Assembly (NCBI GenBank): GCA_964640085.1
Contig: CAZXFA010000010.1
Span: 9,805 to 73,804 of the forward strand
From: an uncultured Actinomycetes bacterium
Lineage (GTDB): Bacteria; Actinomycetota; UBA4738; HRBIN12
Direction: 5' to 3'
Length of the DNA: 64,000 bases
Made by a program: the position numbers and the translations under genes. A model generated the notes under the pieces. It worked only from the letters and a program-made list of their open reading frames with translations, was not told the DNA's origin and made no database searches. Shown here piece after piece: positions 1,795 through 45,439 of the stretch. The stretch's first letter is position 1; every line of letters starts with the position of its first letter.

Positions 1795-1992
1795 TCAGTG
1801 CTTCGCCGGCCACAGCACGGCCGCGAGCGCGGCCCGAGCGAACCGGCGGGCGGCCCCCCGATCGTCCGCGATCCGCGAACGGCGTGTGGCCCTGGCGACC
1901 CGCTCGAGCTCCGCCTCGCGGACGCGGTCGGCGATCCGGTGCCGCGCCATCTCTCCGCTCAGCATCTCGGCCCTCCTCGTCTCGTCAGGCAC
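1795..1992 (-). CDS. hypothetical small basic protein (65 aa), GTG start, weak support
   Basis: ORF from the six-frame track. No convincing SD and no recognisable domain; it may be spurious. Confidence 0.2.
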   Translation of the reverse strand: MPDETRRAEMLSGEMARHRIADRVREAELERVARATRRSRIADDRGAARRFARAALAAVLWPAKH

Positions 1993-2095
1993 CCACGTTA
2001 TGGGGAGCGGTCCTGGGGCGCGGTGATCGGAGGCACGACCCGCGGGTGACGTCCGTCACGTTGCAACCGGTCGCTCAGCCGCGGAAGATGCGCGC

Positions 2096-2776
2096 GTGGG
2101 AGAGATGCTCCGACGAGCGTTCGCGGTGGCTGTCGGCTGTGCCGCGGCGTGGGCCATCGCACCGACCGCGGGAGCTCAGACCCCGGCCGCCACGCCACAG
2201 GTCGACGGGGAGGTCTCGGGGGTTCTGGCGCCCGGCGGTGCCCTCACGATGCGGGTCGAGGCGCTGATGCCCGGGGGGTGGGAGGGCCTCCACCTGGTCG
2301 AGGTGGTCGTGATCGTCGAGGGGCGTGAGGTCGATCACCTCCGGTACGACATCGAGGACACCCGGCTCGCGCTGGGCGATCAGGAGATGGTGGTCGGGAC
2401 CGGTGATGCCGTCGTCGGGAAACTGGTGCGGCTCGCCGGATCCCGGGTGGTCGTGACGACCGGGGCCGGTCACCTGTCCTTCACCGCCACCGCCCAGGTG
2501 CTGCGGGAGATCCCGGACGATGCCCGGTTCCGACTCTCGGTGACCGGGGACCGGGGGGAGCACGCATCCGTGACGCGTCGCCTCACCAGGCAGGAGCCCG
2601 AGGGCCTCACGTGGACGACGGTGGTAGCCGCGGTGATCGCGGCGCTGCTCGCGGGGGGGTTCGTCGGGAACCTCTACGCCTCGCGCCGGCGTCCGTCGCC
2701 GCGGCTGTCCGTGTACGGCGCGATCCGCCGCCGCTTGGACGAGGAGCGTTCCTCTTCCGCAGAGGCGAGGCGGTGA
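2096..2776 (+). CDS. secreted single-pass membrane protein (signal peptide, about 150-aa ectodomain, C-terminal TM helix and basic tail); hypothetical
   Basis: Signal peptide MLRRAFAVAVGCAAAWAIAPTAGA and C-terminal TM helix TWTTVVAAVIAALLAGGFVG followed by an RRRPSPR tail. Its stop overlaps the GTG of the next gene (GTGA at 2773-2776). Confidence 0.5.
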   Translation: MGEMLRRAFAVAVGCAAAWAIAPTAGAQTPAATPQVDGEVSGVLAPGGALTMRVEALMPGGWEGLHLVEVVVIVEGREVDHLRYDIEDTRLALGDQEMVVGTGDAVVGKLVRLAGSRVVVTTGAGHLSFTATAQVLREIPDDARFRLSVTGDRGEHASVTRRLTRQEPEGLTWTTVVAAVIAALLAGGFVGNLYASRRRPSPRLSVYGAIRRRLDEERSSSAEARR

Positions 2777-4938
2777 CCGAGGTCGCCGCTCGCGGCGTGT
2801 ACGCGGCCGCGACCCGGGCGGCGGGGAGCTTCCCGGCGGACGATGGTCTGGAACTGTGGCGCCGGATCGCAGAGCGGATCGATCCTGTGGCCTTCCGACC
2901 GCGGCTGCACCCCGACGTGGAGGTGAAGACGTTCCGGCTCCGATGGGGCAACGACTACGCGATGATCGCCAGCCCCGACCGCTCGATGCACTACCGGCTC
3001 GAGCCCTGGGAGGCGGAGATCCTCGACCTGATGGTCGGAACGCGCACCGTGAAGGAGATCGTCGTCGAGCGGTTCCAGGACTCGGGCGACATGGAGCTCT
3101 CGGGCGTTGCCGACCTGGTGGAGCAGCTCCGCGCTGGTGGGTTCCTCGCGACCCCCTACGTCGACGTCCCGGCGATGGTCCGGGGAGCGCTCCGGCCCGT
3201 ATCCGGCATGCGGGCGGTGTCCAGGCGGTTCGTGCGAACGCTCACGCTCGAGTGGGAGGGTGCCCACCGGCTGGTTGTGTGGTTCTACCGGAACGGGCTG
3301 CAGCTGTTCTTCAACCCGGTGGTGGTGGTCGTGGGGCTGGTCGCGTCGTTCGGAGGGTTCGCGGCCTTCGTGTCGCTGTTCCGGACCGGTCGGTTCGAGC
3401 TCGCAGCTGGGGACGCGGCCGTCGCCTCCCTGATCCTCCTCGCGATGAACTACGTCCTCACGTTCGTGCACGAGCTCGCCCACGCGGTCGTCCTCGTCCA
3501 CCACGGTCGACGCGTGAAGAGCGCCGGGTTCATGATCTACTTCGGGTCGCCCGCGTTCTTCGTGGACGCTTCGGACGGCCTGATGATGGAGCGGGGCCCG
3601 CGCATCATGCAGGCCTTCGGCGGTCCGTTCGCCGAGCTCGTGATCGCCGGCGCCGCCTCGTTCGCGGCCTGGATCGCGCCCGACACGTGGGCGGCTCCCA
3701 TCCTGTACCGCTTCGCGCTGCTCAACTACTTCATCATCTTCCTGAACCTGGTCCCCATGCTGGAGCTCGACGGCTACTTCATCCTCTCCGACCTGATCCA
3801 GGTCCCCGATCTCCGGCCCCGTTCGCTGCGGTTCGTCCGCTACGACCTCTGGACCAAGCTGCGACGTCGCGAGCGGTGGACGAAGCAAGAGGGCGGCCTC
3901 GCCCTGTACGGGATCCTCGGCGTCGCGTTCACGATCTTCGCGCTCGTCACGTCCGTCTACTTCTGGGAGGAGGTGTTCGGGGGCCTCATCCGGCGCCTGT
4001 GGGAGGGCGGGTCCGTGGGTCGGCTGCTCCTGATCGCCCTCGTCCTGTTCGTGACCGGTCCGGTCCTCCGAGGGGCCATCGCCCTGGTGCGTAGCCTGGT
4101 GCGACGCGGGATGGGTGTCGTCCGGGCGGTGCGGTTCCGACTCCAGACGCGGTGGCGGATCGAGGCAGCCAGGGCGATCGACGCGCTCCCCATCCTCGAG
4201 GACCTACCCGAGGACGTCCTGTCTGACCTCGCCGGACGGGTGCAGCTGCGCACCTTCGCCGCGGGACGACCGGTGTTCCGTCAGGGCGATCGGCCGGATG
4301 CCTTCTACGTGATCCGCCGTGGGAGGCTCCACGTGATCGAGGAGAACCCGGGGACCGGAACGGAGCGGGTGATCCGGGTCTTGGGCCCGGGCGAGTCGTT
4401 CGGCGAGCTCGGGCTGATCGACGGCCAAGCGCGCTCGGCCACGGTTCGGCCGGTGGAGGACTGCCAGCTGTTCGTGGTGGACGAGGGGACCTTCGACCGT
4501 CTGCTCGCCGACCCGATCCGGGTGCCCGATCTGGCACCCACGCTCCAGGCCGTGGCGGAGCTCCGACGGCTTCCGCCGTTCGCCGGGCTGGAGGCGGCCG
4601 ACCTCTCGGAGGTGCTCGCTCGTGGCGGCTGGGTGAACGTCTCGCCGGGACGGGTCGTGATCGAGCAGGGCCAGGAGGGGGACGCCTTCTACGTGGTCGG
4701 ATCCGGCCGGCTGGAGGTGGCGGTCGACGGCGCCCGGGTGCGCACCCTCGGCCCGGGGGGCCATTTCGGCGAGATCGCCCTCCTGCTGGGGGTGCCGCGG
4801 ACGGCGAGCGTCGTGGCCAGGACCCCCGCCCGGGTCTTCCGCCTGGACCGCGAGGGCTTCGACCGGGTGCTCGCCGAGGCGTTCCGGCGGGGGACCCTCG
4901 ATCCGGCAGCACCGATCGATCGAACCTGGCAGCATTAG
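2773..4938 (+). CDS. M50 family (site-2 protease-like) intramembrane zinc metalloprotease fused to two C-terminal cyclic-nucleotide-binding (CAP effector) domains
   Basis: An HELAHAVVLVHHG (HExxH) motif sits inside a TM helix, with multiple further TM helices. There are two cNMP-binding signatures (FGELGLIDGQARSATVRP and FGEIALLLGVPRTASVVA), each preceded by an (A)FYVI/VRRG(R)L motif. The start is placed at GTG 2773 (SD GAGGCGAGGCG, GTGA overlap with the upstream gene). The track ORF 2611..4938 extends further 5' in frame. Confidence 0.75.
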   Translation: MTEVAARGVYAAATRAAGSFPADDGLELWRRIAERIDPVAFRPRLHPDVEVKTFRLRWGNDYAMIASPDRSMHYRLEPWEAEILDLMVGTRTVKEIVVERFQDSGDMELSGVADLVEQLRAGGFLATPYVDVPAMVRGALRPVSGMRAVSRRFVRTLTLEWEGAHRLVVWFYRNGLQLFFNPVVVVVGLVASFGGFAAFVSLFRTGRFELAAGDAAVASLILLAMNYVLTFVHELAHAVVLVHHGRRVKSAGFMIYFGSPAFFVDASDGLMMERGPRIMQAFGGPFAELVIAGAASFAAWIAPDTWAAPILYRFALLNYFIIFLNLVPMLELDGYFILSDLIQVPDLRPRSLRFVRYDLWTKLRRRERWTKQEGGLALYGILGVAFTIFALVTSVYFWEEVFGGLIRRLWEGGSVGRLLLIALVLFVTGPVLRGAIALVRSLVRRGMGVVRAVRFRLQTRWRIEAARAIDALPILEDLPEDVLSDLAGRVQLRTFAAGRPVFRQGDRPDAFYVIRRGRLHVIEENPGTGTERVIRVLGPGESFGELGLIDGQARSATVRPVEDCQLFVVDEGTFDRLLADPIRVPDLAPTLQAVAELRRLPPFAGLEAADLSEVLARGGWVNVSPGRVVIEQGQEGDAFYVVGSGRLEVAVDGARVRTLGPGGHFGEIALLLGVPRTASVVARTPARVFRLDREGFDRVLAEAFRRGTLDPAAPIDRTWQH

Positions 4939-4968
4939 CCGGGCTCGAGCTCCGAGGAGAGGGTCGGG

Positions 4969-5187
4969 ATGGATTGCTGGCACTGCCGCAGGACCGCCGT
5001 GGGCGTCTGCCGCTTCTGTGGGCGAGGGATCTGCGAGGACCACGTGGAGACCCTCCCCTTCGTGCTCGAGCTGTTCCGCGGCAAGGAAGGGACGCGCGCC
5101 CTGGTCGTCGAGGATGCCCTCTTCTGCGGCGCGTGTACGCCGCGTCCGGACCCGCTCGACCTCCCGGAGCTCGACTCCGAGGCGTGA
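4969..5187 (+). CDS. small Cys-rich zinc-ribbon protein (DUF2180-like: CxxC...CxxCGxGxC.DH)
   Basis: 72 aa, MDCWHCRRTAVGVCRFCGRGICEDH plus a later CGAC. It sits 30 bp downstream of the protease gene. Confidence 0.5.
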   Translation: MDCWHCRRTAVGVCRFCGRGICEDHVETLPFVLELFRGKEGTRALVVEDALFCGACTPRPDPLDLPELDSEA

Positions 5188-5192
5188 GCGGG

Positions 5193-5232
5193 TGTGACGT
5201 TCGTCACAGCCTCCCGCGTGATGCAGGTCACG
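5193..5232 (+). promoter_or_regulatory. Two CRP/FNR-type palindromic operator candidates: TGTGA-cgttcg-TCACA (5193-5208) and CGTGA-tgcagg-TCACG (5217-5232)
   Basis: Both are perfect inverted repeats with the canonical 6-bp spacer. Their centres are 24 bp apart, about 110-150 bp upstream of the small basic ORF at 5342 and in the same region as the Crp-family regulator gene. Confidence 0.5.
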
Positions 5233-5341
5233 TCCCGGTCGGTGACGCCCGGCACATCGATCGTGTGACGGCGACGCGAGGATGATGAGGTGTGGTGGCG
5301 TCCCCACCGGGGACCGGGATCCCGGAGGGAGGTGAAAGCGA

Positions 5342-5488
5342 GTGGCGGAGAAGAAGATCACCCCGAAGGCCGCGACGGGCAAGGCGGCGAGTGGCACCGG
5401 GAAGGCTGCGGCGACCCGCGTGACCAAGCGTCAGACCAAGCGTCAGACGAAGCGGCAGACGAAGCGGCAGACCAAGCGGACGATCTGA
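5342..5488 (+). CDS. unannotated small basic protein, 48 aa (MAEKKITPKAATGKAASGTGKAAATRVTKRQTKRQTKRQTKRQTKRTI); histone-H1-like / nucleoid- or ribosome-associated candidate
   Basis: GTG start is preceded by a strong SD (GGAGGGAGGTG, 7 nt spacing). The coding part contains five tandem 12-bp repeats (ACCAAGCGTCAG-like) encoding (TKRQ)x5, with TGA at 5486-5488. It is not in the ORF track because it is under 60 aa, and it is followed directly by a perfect hairpin. Confidence 0.55.
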   Translation: MAEKKITPKAATGKAASGTGKAAATRVTKRQTKRQTKRQTKRQTKRTI

Positions 5489-5509
5489 GGTCTTCGTCGT
5501 CGGTACCCC

Positions 5510-5542
5510 GACGGCGGGCCCGACGCGGTCGGGCCCGCCGTC
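5510..5542 (+). terminator. Perfect 15-bp stem hairpin GACGGCGGGCCCGAC-gcg-GTCGGGCCCGCCGTC (intrinsic terminator candidate)
   Basis: Seen directly in the sequence, 22 bp after the stop of the small basic ORF. It argues against the Crp-family ORF starting at 5290. Confidence 0.5.
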
Positions 5543-5589
5543 AGCTTTCGGGCTATCCGCGGAGAAGGGACTTGGCTACGCTTGCGACG

Positions 5590-6330
5590 ATGGTGACGGC
5601 GAGGACCGGGGTCGGGGCGATCGCCCCCACGGAGCTGGTGGGGTCGATGGCCCGGACTCCGCTGTTCGACGGTGCCGCACCGCGAACGATCGCACGGCTG
5701 GCCGAGCGAGGGACCCTGCGTCCGTACCGCCGCGGTACCTACCTGTTCCACCAGGGCGATCTCTCGCCGGAGGTGTTCTTCCTGGTCTCGGGGCGGGTCG
5801 AGATTAGCTCGCTGTCGGCCAGCGGACACCGCCAGCTCCACACCACGCTCGATTCACCGCAGTTCTTCGGCGAGCTCGGGGTGCTCGGAGACATGCCGCG
5901 GAGCGCCGCCGCCCTCGCCCTGGAGGCGTCCACGGTCTGGGTCATGCCCGCGGAGGGCTTCCTCGGATTCCTCGCCGAGGAGCCCGCCGCCTCCCGTGCC
6001 CTCCTCCGCGCGCTGGCACGGCAGGTGACCGCGCACGAGGCGTTCGTCGAGGACCTGCTGTACCTGGACCTGAAGGGGCGGGTGGCCAAGCGGCTGCTCC
6101 AGCTGGTGTCGCCGTCGCTGGACGAGCTCCCCGAGGACGGAGCGGTCGTGCCCTCCATCGTCACCCACGCCGACCTCGCGAGCCTGTGCGGCGGGAGTCG
6201 TGAGAACGTGACCAGGATCCTCTCCGAGTTCCAGCGCCGCGGGATCGTGGAGCGCGATGGCCGGCGGTTCGTGCTGCGGAAGATCGCGGGACTGGCCCAC
6301 CTGGCCGGCGTCCCCGGGGGTTCGAGGTGA
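5590..6330 (+). CDS. Crp/Fnr family transcriptional regulator (cNMP-binding domain plus C-terminal HTH)
   Basis: cNMP-binding domain (TPLFDGAAP...FGELGVLGDMPRSAAALA) and HTH (SRENVTRILSEFQRRGIVERDGRRFVL). The track ORF starts at 5290 but would read through the hairpin and the small ORF. Start chosen at ATG 5590; ATG 5647 (MARTPLFDG, SD GGTGGGG) is also possible. Confidence 0.8.
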   Translation: MVTARTGVGAIAPTELVGSMARTPLFDGAAPRTIARLAERGTLRPYRRGTYLFHQGDLSPEVFFLVSGRVEISSLSASGHRQLHTTLDSPQFFGELGVLGDMPRSAAALALEASTVWVMPAEGFLGFLAEEPAASRALLRALARQVTAHEAFVEDLLYLDLKGRVAKRLLQLVSPSLDELPEDGAVVPSIVTHADLASLCGGSRENVTRILSEFQRRGIVERDGRRFVLRKIAGLAHLAGVPGGSR

Positions 6331-6641
6331 CCGTCCGCGAGCTCCGCCGCTGGTGGGGGCAGACAGTGGCCGCCCACGACTGGCTGGAGGCGGCGAGCGT
6401 CGCTCTCGGCGTGCTCTTCCTCGCGGGGGCGCTGGCGAGCGTCGTTGCGGTCCTCGTCGCGGTGGTGAGCTTGGGGGAGCCCGAGCCCGGGCTCGAGGGC
6501 TCCCAGGGGCTCCTCCAGGCCACCAGGGGATTGGGGGCATTCCTGTTCGGCGCCTTCGCTCTCGTCGCCGTCGCGGTCGGCTGGTTCCTCGCGGGCGAGG
6601 CGATCAGTAGGGCGGCGCGTCGCCTGGTGGGCCGGGGCTGA
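6327..6641 (+). CDS. small 2-TM membrane protein, hypothetical; translationally coupled to the Crp-family regulator (GTGA overlap)
   Basis: 104 aa with two hydrophobic helices. The start GTG overlaps the stop of the Crp-family gene. Confidence 0.45.
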   Translation: MTVRELRRWWGQTVAAHDWLEAASVALGVLFLAGALASVVAVLVAVVSLGEPEPGLEGSQGLLQATRGLGAFLFGAFALVAVAVGWFLAGEAISRAARRLVGRG

Positions 6642-45421: not shown

Positions 45422-45439
45422 TGACTGATGAATCAGTCA
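45422..45439. promoter_or_regulatory. Perfect palindrome TGACTGAT-GA-ATCAGTCA (TetR operator candidate) in an AT-rich patch
   Basis: Seen directly, 18 bp upstream of the TetR start codon and in the divergent region toward the ABM-domain gene. Confidence 0.45.

Follow-up and report, generated by a model that had tools for sequence, protein, structure and literature searches.

A tightly packed array of candidate CRP-type operator sites next to a Crp-family regulator gene in a conserved cassette of uncultured Actinomycetota

E. coli CRP, a global and cyclic nucleotide (cNMP)-binding regulator, recognises the 16-bp palindrome TGTGA-N6-TCACA by means of a helix with the pattern R-E-x-x-x-R, in which R180, E181 and R185 make the base contacts. 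At its class II/III (tandem-site) promoters a proximal site lies near -41.5 in a promoter without a -35 element, and extra sites are found upstream, E. coli CRP sites taking up helical-phase positions (-61.5, -71.5 and -92.5). FNR recognises TTGAT-N4-ATCAA half-sites and carries its Fe-S centre on a cluster of N-terminal Cys residues, and Rex operators, 16-bp palindromes that also begin with TGTGA and that occur in Actinobacteria, follow the consensus TGTGAA-N4-TTCACA (A at position 6, T at position 11). M. tuberculosis Rv3676 (CRPMt) and C. glutamicum GlxR, which come from the same phylum as the DNA analysed here, are global regulators. CRPMt contacts the motif (C/T)GTG..-N6-..CAC(G/A) with the helix SRETVNKAL, through R188, E189 and K193 (PMC5758884). 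A specialised second CRP-family regulator of M. tuberculosis, Cmr (Rv1675c), serves a few promoters near its own gene; a cAMP pocket cannot be recognised in it, and an Arg-loop is used instead (PMC5758884). Its DNA binding is reported to be cooperative (PMC5758884; PMC5499769), and a single site at its own promoter is described (PMC5499769).

The locus described here lies in a window of 64 kb (the whole stretch of DNA that was analysed, with a G+C content of ~70%), and its features are collected in Table 1. A sequence-only reading had singled out two perfect palindromes, 24 bp apart from start to start, and the sequence confirms both (sites 1 and 2 of P2 in Table 1). The further GTGAC half-sites that it placed downstream, up to position 5275, are present as well, in stretches that read GGTGACGCC from 5241 and GTGTGACGG at 5263-5271, but only one of them is actually a half-site, and the rest make up a full third site that deviates at one position; indeed, the core of site 3 (5242-5255) is recovered when the window is searched for GTGAC-N4-GTCAC with one mismatch allowed. 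Start-to-start spacings along the array, with the half-site included, are 24, 24 and 23 bp. Site 1 is a perfect match to TGTGA-N6-TCACA, and against the GTGA/TCAC core sites 2 and 3 show zero and one mismatches, respectively. The gene context is also as the earlier reading gave it: the sites lie upstream of a small basic ORF and of a Crp-family regulator gene (crp) on the same strand, and just downstream of an operon encoding a cNMP-binding protease. Site 1 starts 5 nt past the stop codon of the last gene of that operon, a 72-aa ORF.

The 64-kb window contains a single TGTGA-N6-TCACA, where 0.03 matches are expected, and six copies of GTGA-N6-TCAC, where 0.89 are expected, a count that none of 100 shuffles reached. 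Matches to GTGA-N6-TCAC at 2325, 42793 and 45310, like two near-matches (2773 and 15228), were set aside as chance occurrences, being coding or without GTGAC/GTCAC arms. Elsewhere in the window, a perfect 18-bp palindrome (TGACTGAT-GA-ATCAGTCA, 45422-45439) is positioned directly 5' of a minus-strand ORF that looks TetR-like by eye, and it is likely to be the own operator of this putative TetR-like regulator.

Table 1. Coordinates of the features of the cassette in the window (strand., no strand assigned).
Feature	Position	Strand	Remarks
P1 distal weak site, GGTGATCGGAGGCACG	2022-2037	.	8/10 core positions
P1 proximal strong site, GGTGACGTCCGTCACG	2045-2060	.	23 bp from distal site, followed by conserved TTGC
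Predicted -10 of P1, GAAGAT	2084-2089	+	same -10 type as P2
p226, first gene of the P1 operon, 226 aa	2096-2776	+	signal-peptide-like N-terminus, no family match
M50-type intramembrane metalloprotease	2773-4938	+	two C-terminal cNMP-binding domains; GTG start overlaps upstream stop codon
Cys-rich protein, 72 aa	4969-5187	+	CxxC motifs, weak DUF2180 similarity
P2 site 1 (distal), TGTGACGTTCGTCACA	5193-5208	.	perfect 16-bp palindrome; predicted centre ~-89.5; ortholog in nearly all loci
P2 site 2, CGTGATGCAGGTCACG	5217-5232	.	perfect inverted repeat, 24 bp from site 1; predicted centre ~-65.5
P2 site 3 (promoter-proximal), GGTGACGCCCGGCACA	5241-5256	.	right arm with one mismatch; predicted centre ~-41.5
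GTGAC half-site	5265-5269	.	23 bp past site 3, in spacer directly 5' of -10
Predicted -10 of P2, GAGGAT	5278-5283	+	hexamer conserved across loci; predicted TSS ~5290
Small basic protein gene, 48 aa	5342-5488	+	conserved ORF; proposed direct target of P2
GC-rich hairpin, 15-bp stem, terminator-like	5510-5542	+	fold z = -3.65; between small ORF and crp
Predicted -10 of crp promoter P3 (leaderless), TACGCT	5577-5582	+	TANNNT conserved across loci
Crp-family regulator gene (crp)	5590-6330	+	cNMP-binding domain and Crp HTH; recognition helix SRENVTRIL; probable start ATG 5590

A search based on the regulator retrieved 80 orthologous loci (803 kb), all of them in MAGs of uncultured Actinomycetota and with regulators that are 55-84% identical. 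Gene order is conserved among these 80 loci: a divergent 65-aa ORF on the minus strand is followed by the genes for p226, the M50/cNMP protease and the Cys-rich protein, then by the array, the small ORF and crp. Co-occurrence of the sites with the regulator gene, in fixed order, extends to ~150 independent loci, and the crp gene is linked to the sites in every complete locus. When the arrays were anchored on the small ORF, two to four sites were found in 72 of the 73 that could be scored (two sites in 15, three in 39 and four in 18), and adjacent sites in the orthologous arrays are spaced by 24 bp (n = 104) or 23 bp (n = 36). Exact GTGA-N6-TCAC palindromes number one to three per locus in nearly all loci, and they lie 260-550 bp, mostly 280-450 bp, 5' of crp.

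The left arm of the sites reads GTGAC in 199 of 219 cases, and the central 4-mers comprise 55 different sequences. The right arm is GTCAC or, chiefly in the promoter-proximal site, GACAC or GGCAC, and a proximal-site variant GGTGACG-NN-CG[A/G]CACA is kept across loci. In the array sites the base that follows GTGA is C in 91% and T in 7%, and it is never A; the extended consensus, TGTGACG-NN-CGTCACA, is G/C-rich. Only the GTGAC/GTCAC arms are kept and the surrounding intergenic DNA drifts freely, the pattern of a phylogenetic footprint left by selection on the arms. Exact GTGAC-N4-GTCAC occurs 146 times in the 803 kb against ~1.65 matches expected from first-order Markov simulations, a count that overstates the number of independent events because the orthologous loci are mutually related. 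The array zone (P2) holds 118 of these matches and a zone ~3.1 kb upstream (P1) another 26, with 2 elsewhere. With 144 of the 146 matches at two promoters, the palindromes of these loci are far above chance frequency and associated with promoters.

In public metagenome contigs with two perfect sites 24 bp apart, the same cassette was present in 77 of the first 120 stretches listed. The remaining 43 of those first 120 are heterogeneous, mainly iteron-like tandem repeats plus one unrelated recurring element. This element (L118, L131, L142, L154, L165, L171 and L189; metagenome contigs of 57-65% GC) has a context that differs from that of the cassette, and carries two GTGAC-N4-GTCAC palindromes 24 bp apart beside a conserved 'aagtatggtttagaacttgtt' motif. 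In L084, L087, L097, L127, L134, L148 and L179 (contigs of low to mid GC) identical 24-bp GTGAC-N4-GTCAC units are arranged head to tail; these look like plasmid or phage iterons that are unrelated to the cassette.

The regulator combines a cNMP_binding domain with an HTH_Crp_2 domain. Within the HTH (VTHADLASLCGGSRENVTRIL) the orthologues share the helix GGSRENVTRIL with an invariance of at least 90%, and the recognition helix shows the R-E-x-x-x-R pattern of the E. coli CRP type. Among proteins of solved structure, M. tuberculosis CRP and C. glutamicum GlxR come closest (E ~1e-27), and their motif, (C/T)GTG..-N6-..CAC(G/A), is like the one found here (PMC5758884); SRENVTRIL aligns with, but is not identical to, SRETVNKAL of CRPMt. 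E. coli CRP is a distant relative (E = 8.5e-14 to chain 1i5z_A), and the similarity to Cmr is weak (E = 6e-8). Unlike Cmr, moreover, the regulator keeps a ligand-pocket motif in its orthologues (FFGELGVLGDMPR[ST]A, in the pattern FGE...PR[ST]A). An FNR-type identity was rejected, since the half-sites are GTGAC, not TTGAT, and in place of a Cys cluster the translated regulator has just one Cys, which falls within the HTH. The sequence-only reading had called the palindromes CRP/FNR-type, and of that label only the CRP part holds.

In terms of sequence, the array has everything that marks a CRP-type operator, namely the arms, the footprint and a probable cognate regulator with the contact residues. 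The adjacent regulator is the only one of the Crp family in the 64-kb window. The motif is nearly restricted to two promoters of one cassette, in the window and in the 803 kb of related loci, and motif, helix and gene linkage are conserved together; this makes the adjacent regulator the most likely binder of the array. Direct control by the neighbouring Crp protein, which the sequence-only reading had put forward as a strong candidate, is therefore well supported by comparison between loci, through co-occurrence, conserved arms, the recognition helix and the confinement of the motif.

A consensus scan for sigma-70 promoters and terminators across 4700-5800 gave no matches. The consensus used is of the E. 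coli type and fits Actinomycetota of 70% GC poorly, and for this reason the -10 elements were taken from the cross-locus alignment. In this alignment a [C/G]A.GAT hexamer is located 3' of the proximal site of P2, at a distance of 21 nt in 42 loci and of 22 nt in 15, and the other flanks are not conserved. Positions 2 (A) and 6 (T) of the -10-like hexamer are invariant, position 1 is never T, and no -35-like element is present at P2. Because the distance between the array and the hexamer is fixed, the centre of the proximal site is placed near -41.5 of the predicted small-ORF promoter, and sites 2 and 1 are predicted to centre near -65.5 and -89.5 relative to the transcription start inferred from the hexamer. 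P2 is accordingly a predicted promoter of the small basic ORF with a weak -10-like element. In its predicted proximal site near -41.5, the lack of a -35 and the extra upstream sites, as in the 16-bp palindrome and the cNMP-binding regulator with its R-E-x-x-x-R helix, this arrangement resembles the class II/III promoters of E. coli CRP. It differs from them in the G/C-rich extended consensus and in the edge-to-edge packing of the sites at 23-24 bp, which replaces the helical-phase spacings.

The small basic ORF is preceded by a good SD sequence (GGAGGGAGG) 9 nt 5' of its start. Its N-terminus, AEKKI[ST]PKA (AEKKITPKA in the window), and an AATRVTK motif are conserved in ~73 loci, and third codon positions are the most variable among the orthologous loci, which together indicate that the 48-aa ORF is a real gene. 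The C-terminus, by contrast with this conserved part, is a basic tandem repeat that is hypervariable in unit and copy number, the proteins of loci L001-L079 being 39-90 aa long; the unit is TKRQ, repeated four times, in the window, and QKV, KAVRAT, SKATRV or KS elsewhere. A homology search with the small ORF returned only four unnamed hypothetical proteins and no named homologue, and searches of Pfam and NCBIfam gave no match for the small basic ORF, p226 or the divergent 65-aa ORF.

Nearly all loci have the hairpin that separates the small ORF from crp (mean ~-33 kcal/mol, -32.6). Its stem covaries, with a sequence that changes from one locus to another, which identifies a genuine RNA or terminator structure. 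A clear T-run is often missing from it in the orthologous loci, and a terminator or attenuator of the actinobacterial kind is its probable identity. Beyond the hairpin, in 64 of 77 loci, an in-frame ATG or GTG of crp is preceded at 5-8 nt (mostly 7) by a canonical TANNNT hexamer, and a TANNNT shortly before the start codon is the usual geometry of actinobacterial leaderless promoters. A crp start at TTG 5572 was rejected: the codons that would read 'LATLAT' are the conserved TANNNT promoter, and the start was therefore moved to ATG 5590. In the window the apparent 'LATLATM' of 5572-5592 is the promoter TTGGCTACGCTTGCGACGATG (-10 TACGCT, 7 nt, ATG), so that the TTG call over-extends the protein.

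Judging from this alignment, crp is probably transcribed separately from its own leaderless promoter, and transcriptional read-through from the small ORF into crp may also occur. Since this promoter stands behind a terminator hairpin, the location of the array 'upstream of crp' does not mean autoregulation. Direct autoregulation through an operator in crp's own promoter is indeed not supported, given the intervening hairpin, the separate TANNNT promoter and the lack of nearby sites, no exact-core GTGA-N6-TCAC being found within ~260 bp 5' of crp in the orthologous loci. This sets the system apart from Cmr, in that the array would act on the neighbouring gene.

The zone ~3.1 kb upstream (P1, 2022-2060), which was absent from the sequence-only reading, is on sequence grounds probably a second target promoter of the Crp regulator. 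Across loci its -10 follows 23-24 nt past the proximal site and the start codon comes 6-7 nt further on; in the window GTG 2096 is 6 nt 3' of the -10, and the mRNA is thus probably leaderless. The exact P1 layout is found in only 27 of the 61 loci that cover the region, with variants in some others. The P1 sites occupy an intergenic region that is common to the p226 operon and the divergent 65-aa ORF (1795-1992, minus strand), which is Arg/Ala-rich and shows 44-72% identity in many loci.

Among the products of the P1 operon, the M50 protease carries its two cNMP-binding domains as a fusion, and this architecture suggests gating by a nucleotide. Its membrane part is closest to RiPP-maturation intramembrane metalloproteases, namely the daptide HExxH protease NF041824 (E = 8e-46, below cutoff) and YydH/LiaK. 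No protein of the cassette is better conserved than the 72-aa Cys-rich one (mostly 73-91% identity, compared with 55-84% for the regulator). A literature search for the cassette (Crp + M50 + cNMP) gave no relevant match. The regulon is apparently a local one of two promoters, unlike that of E. coli CRP, and there is no hint of the global role that distinguishes Rv3676 and GlxR, from which the system also differs in its conserved cassette with a putatively cNMP-gated M50 protease. In this respect it is like Cmr, as a specialised CRP-family regulator of a few promoters near its own gene.

The reading that we consider probable is that the adjacent Crp protein, in a cNMP-bound form, acts as an activator at the P2 array and at P1, and that the array of three to four sites drives the small basic protein. 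The regulator would be produced from its own housekeeping-type leaderless promoter, and binding of a cyclic nucleotide would allow its dimers to fill the array. The proximal dimer, ~41.5 bp 5' of the predicted start, would then aid RNA polymerase at a weak promoter (GAGGAT, no -35), and the upstream dimers would either load the proximal dimer cooperatively or provide extra contacts. The direct output would be the conserved small basic protein, with the terminator hairpin restricting read-through into crp. Through the P1 sites the same regulator would drive the operon of p226, the M50-cNMP protease and the Cys-rich protein, and a single regulator acting on both P2 and P1 would make the cassette a self-contained cNMP-responsive module.

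Repression by the same Crp on the same sites is an unlikely but possible reading, in which cooperative filling from the distal to the proximal site, together with the half-site in the spacer, would occlude RNA polymerase at P2 and possibly block read-through from the upstream operon. The array would suit such a role in being contiguous from ~-100 to ~-20, in having its most consensus-like site at the distal end and its weakest at the proximal end, and in starting only 5 nt past the stop codon of the upstream operon; moreover, the spacer that leads from the proximal site to the -10 contains a GTGAC half-site in the window, and a similar one follows the proximal site in roughly a third of the loci, as read by eye from the alignment. 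However, no full site covers the -10 or the predicted start at either P1 or P2, the strongest or proximal site being predicted near -42, and the strong site of P1 adjoins a -35-like TTGC, leaving the core promoter uncovered. The -10 elements of P1 and P2 are also atypical and probably weak, never having T at position 1, whereas the crp promoter is canonical and without sites, and promoters that depend on an activator typically have a weak -10. On balance, activation is clearly favoured over repression.

Both of these readings have the adjacent Crp as the binder. It is improbable that the sites belong instead to a global Crp/GlxR orthologue encoded elsewhere, or to another regulator of GTGA palindromes such as Rex, even though TGTGA-N6-TCACA-like motifs are common to several CRP-family paralogues (the recognition motifs of M. 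tuberculosis Cmr and CRPMt overlap; PMC5758884). From a global regulon, sites at other genes would be expected, yet the motif is nearly confined to the cassette in both the 64 kb and the 803 kb, and the cassette dominates the metagenome matches; furthermore, the window offers no other Crp-family regulator, and recognition helix and motif are conserved jointly. A Rex operator identity was rejected on the base after GTGA, which at position 6 is C or T (91% and 7%) and never A, and no Rex gene is linked. It is scarcely credible that the palindromes are products of chance, or that they work as RNA hairpins, for instance to terminate or stabilise the transcript of the upstream operon at its 3' end. 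Site 1 does start immediately behind the 72-aa ORF, and each palindrome can be folded into a small hairpin, but taken in isolation these hairpins have little stability (on average -4.5 kcal/mol, compared with -32.6 for the downstream hairpin), the fold z-score of the region is only -1.95, and the consensus scan of 4700-5800 found no T-run or terminator-like site. The arms are fixed and do not covary, right-arm GACAC and GGCAC occurring without compensation in the left arm, and Rfam gave no match either in 4500-6500 at E <= 1 or in the whole window at the gathering threshold. An identity of the array as an intrinsic terminator or structured RNA was rejected on these grounds, and chance is ruled out by the window statistics and the enrichment in the 803 kb.

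A Crp site beside a Crp gene is, by itself, ordinary regulatory biology, and the principle of a CRP-dependent tandem-site promoter is well known; novel here are the lineage and the cassette, along with the tight packing of the sites at 23-24 bp. A broader reading can be sketched that we regard as quite doubtful. The edge-to-edge array would form a cooperative, filament-like platform for a dedicated Crp paralogue, turning cNMP into a sharp on/off switch of an unrecognised module in widespread soil Actinomycetota; the same nucleotide would gate both transcription and the RiPP-maturation-like M50 protease, and the induced small protein would be a substrate of the protease or a precursor peptide.

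Overall, the locus provides a clean and testable regulator-operator pair in a lineage that is known from metagenomes alone. It defines a compact, putatively cNMP-responsive cassette in which a regulator is joined by an intramembrane protease that is apparently gated by cNMP, by a Cys-rich protein and by a small basic protein with repeats, and which recurs in many soil metagenomes. The unusually tight packing of three to four Crp sites could help to explain how dimers of the CRP family cooperate on DNA.
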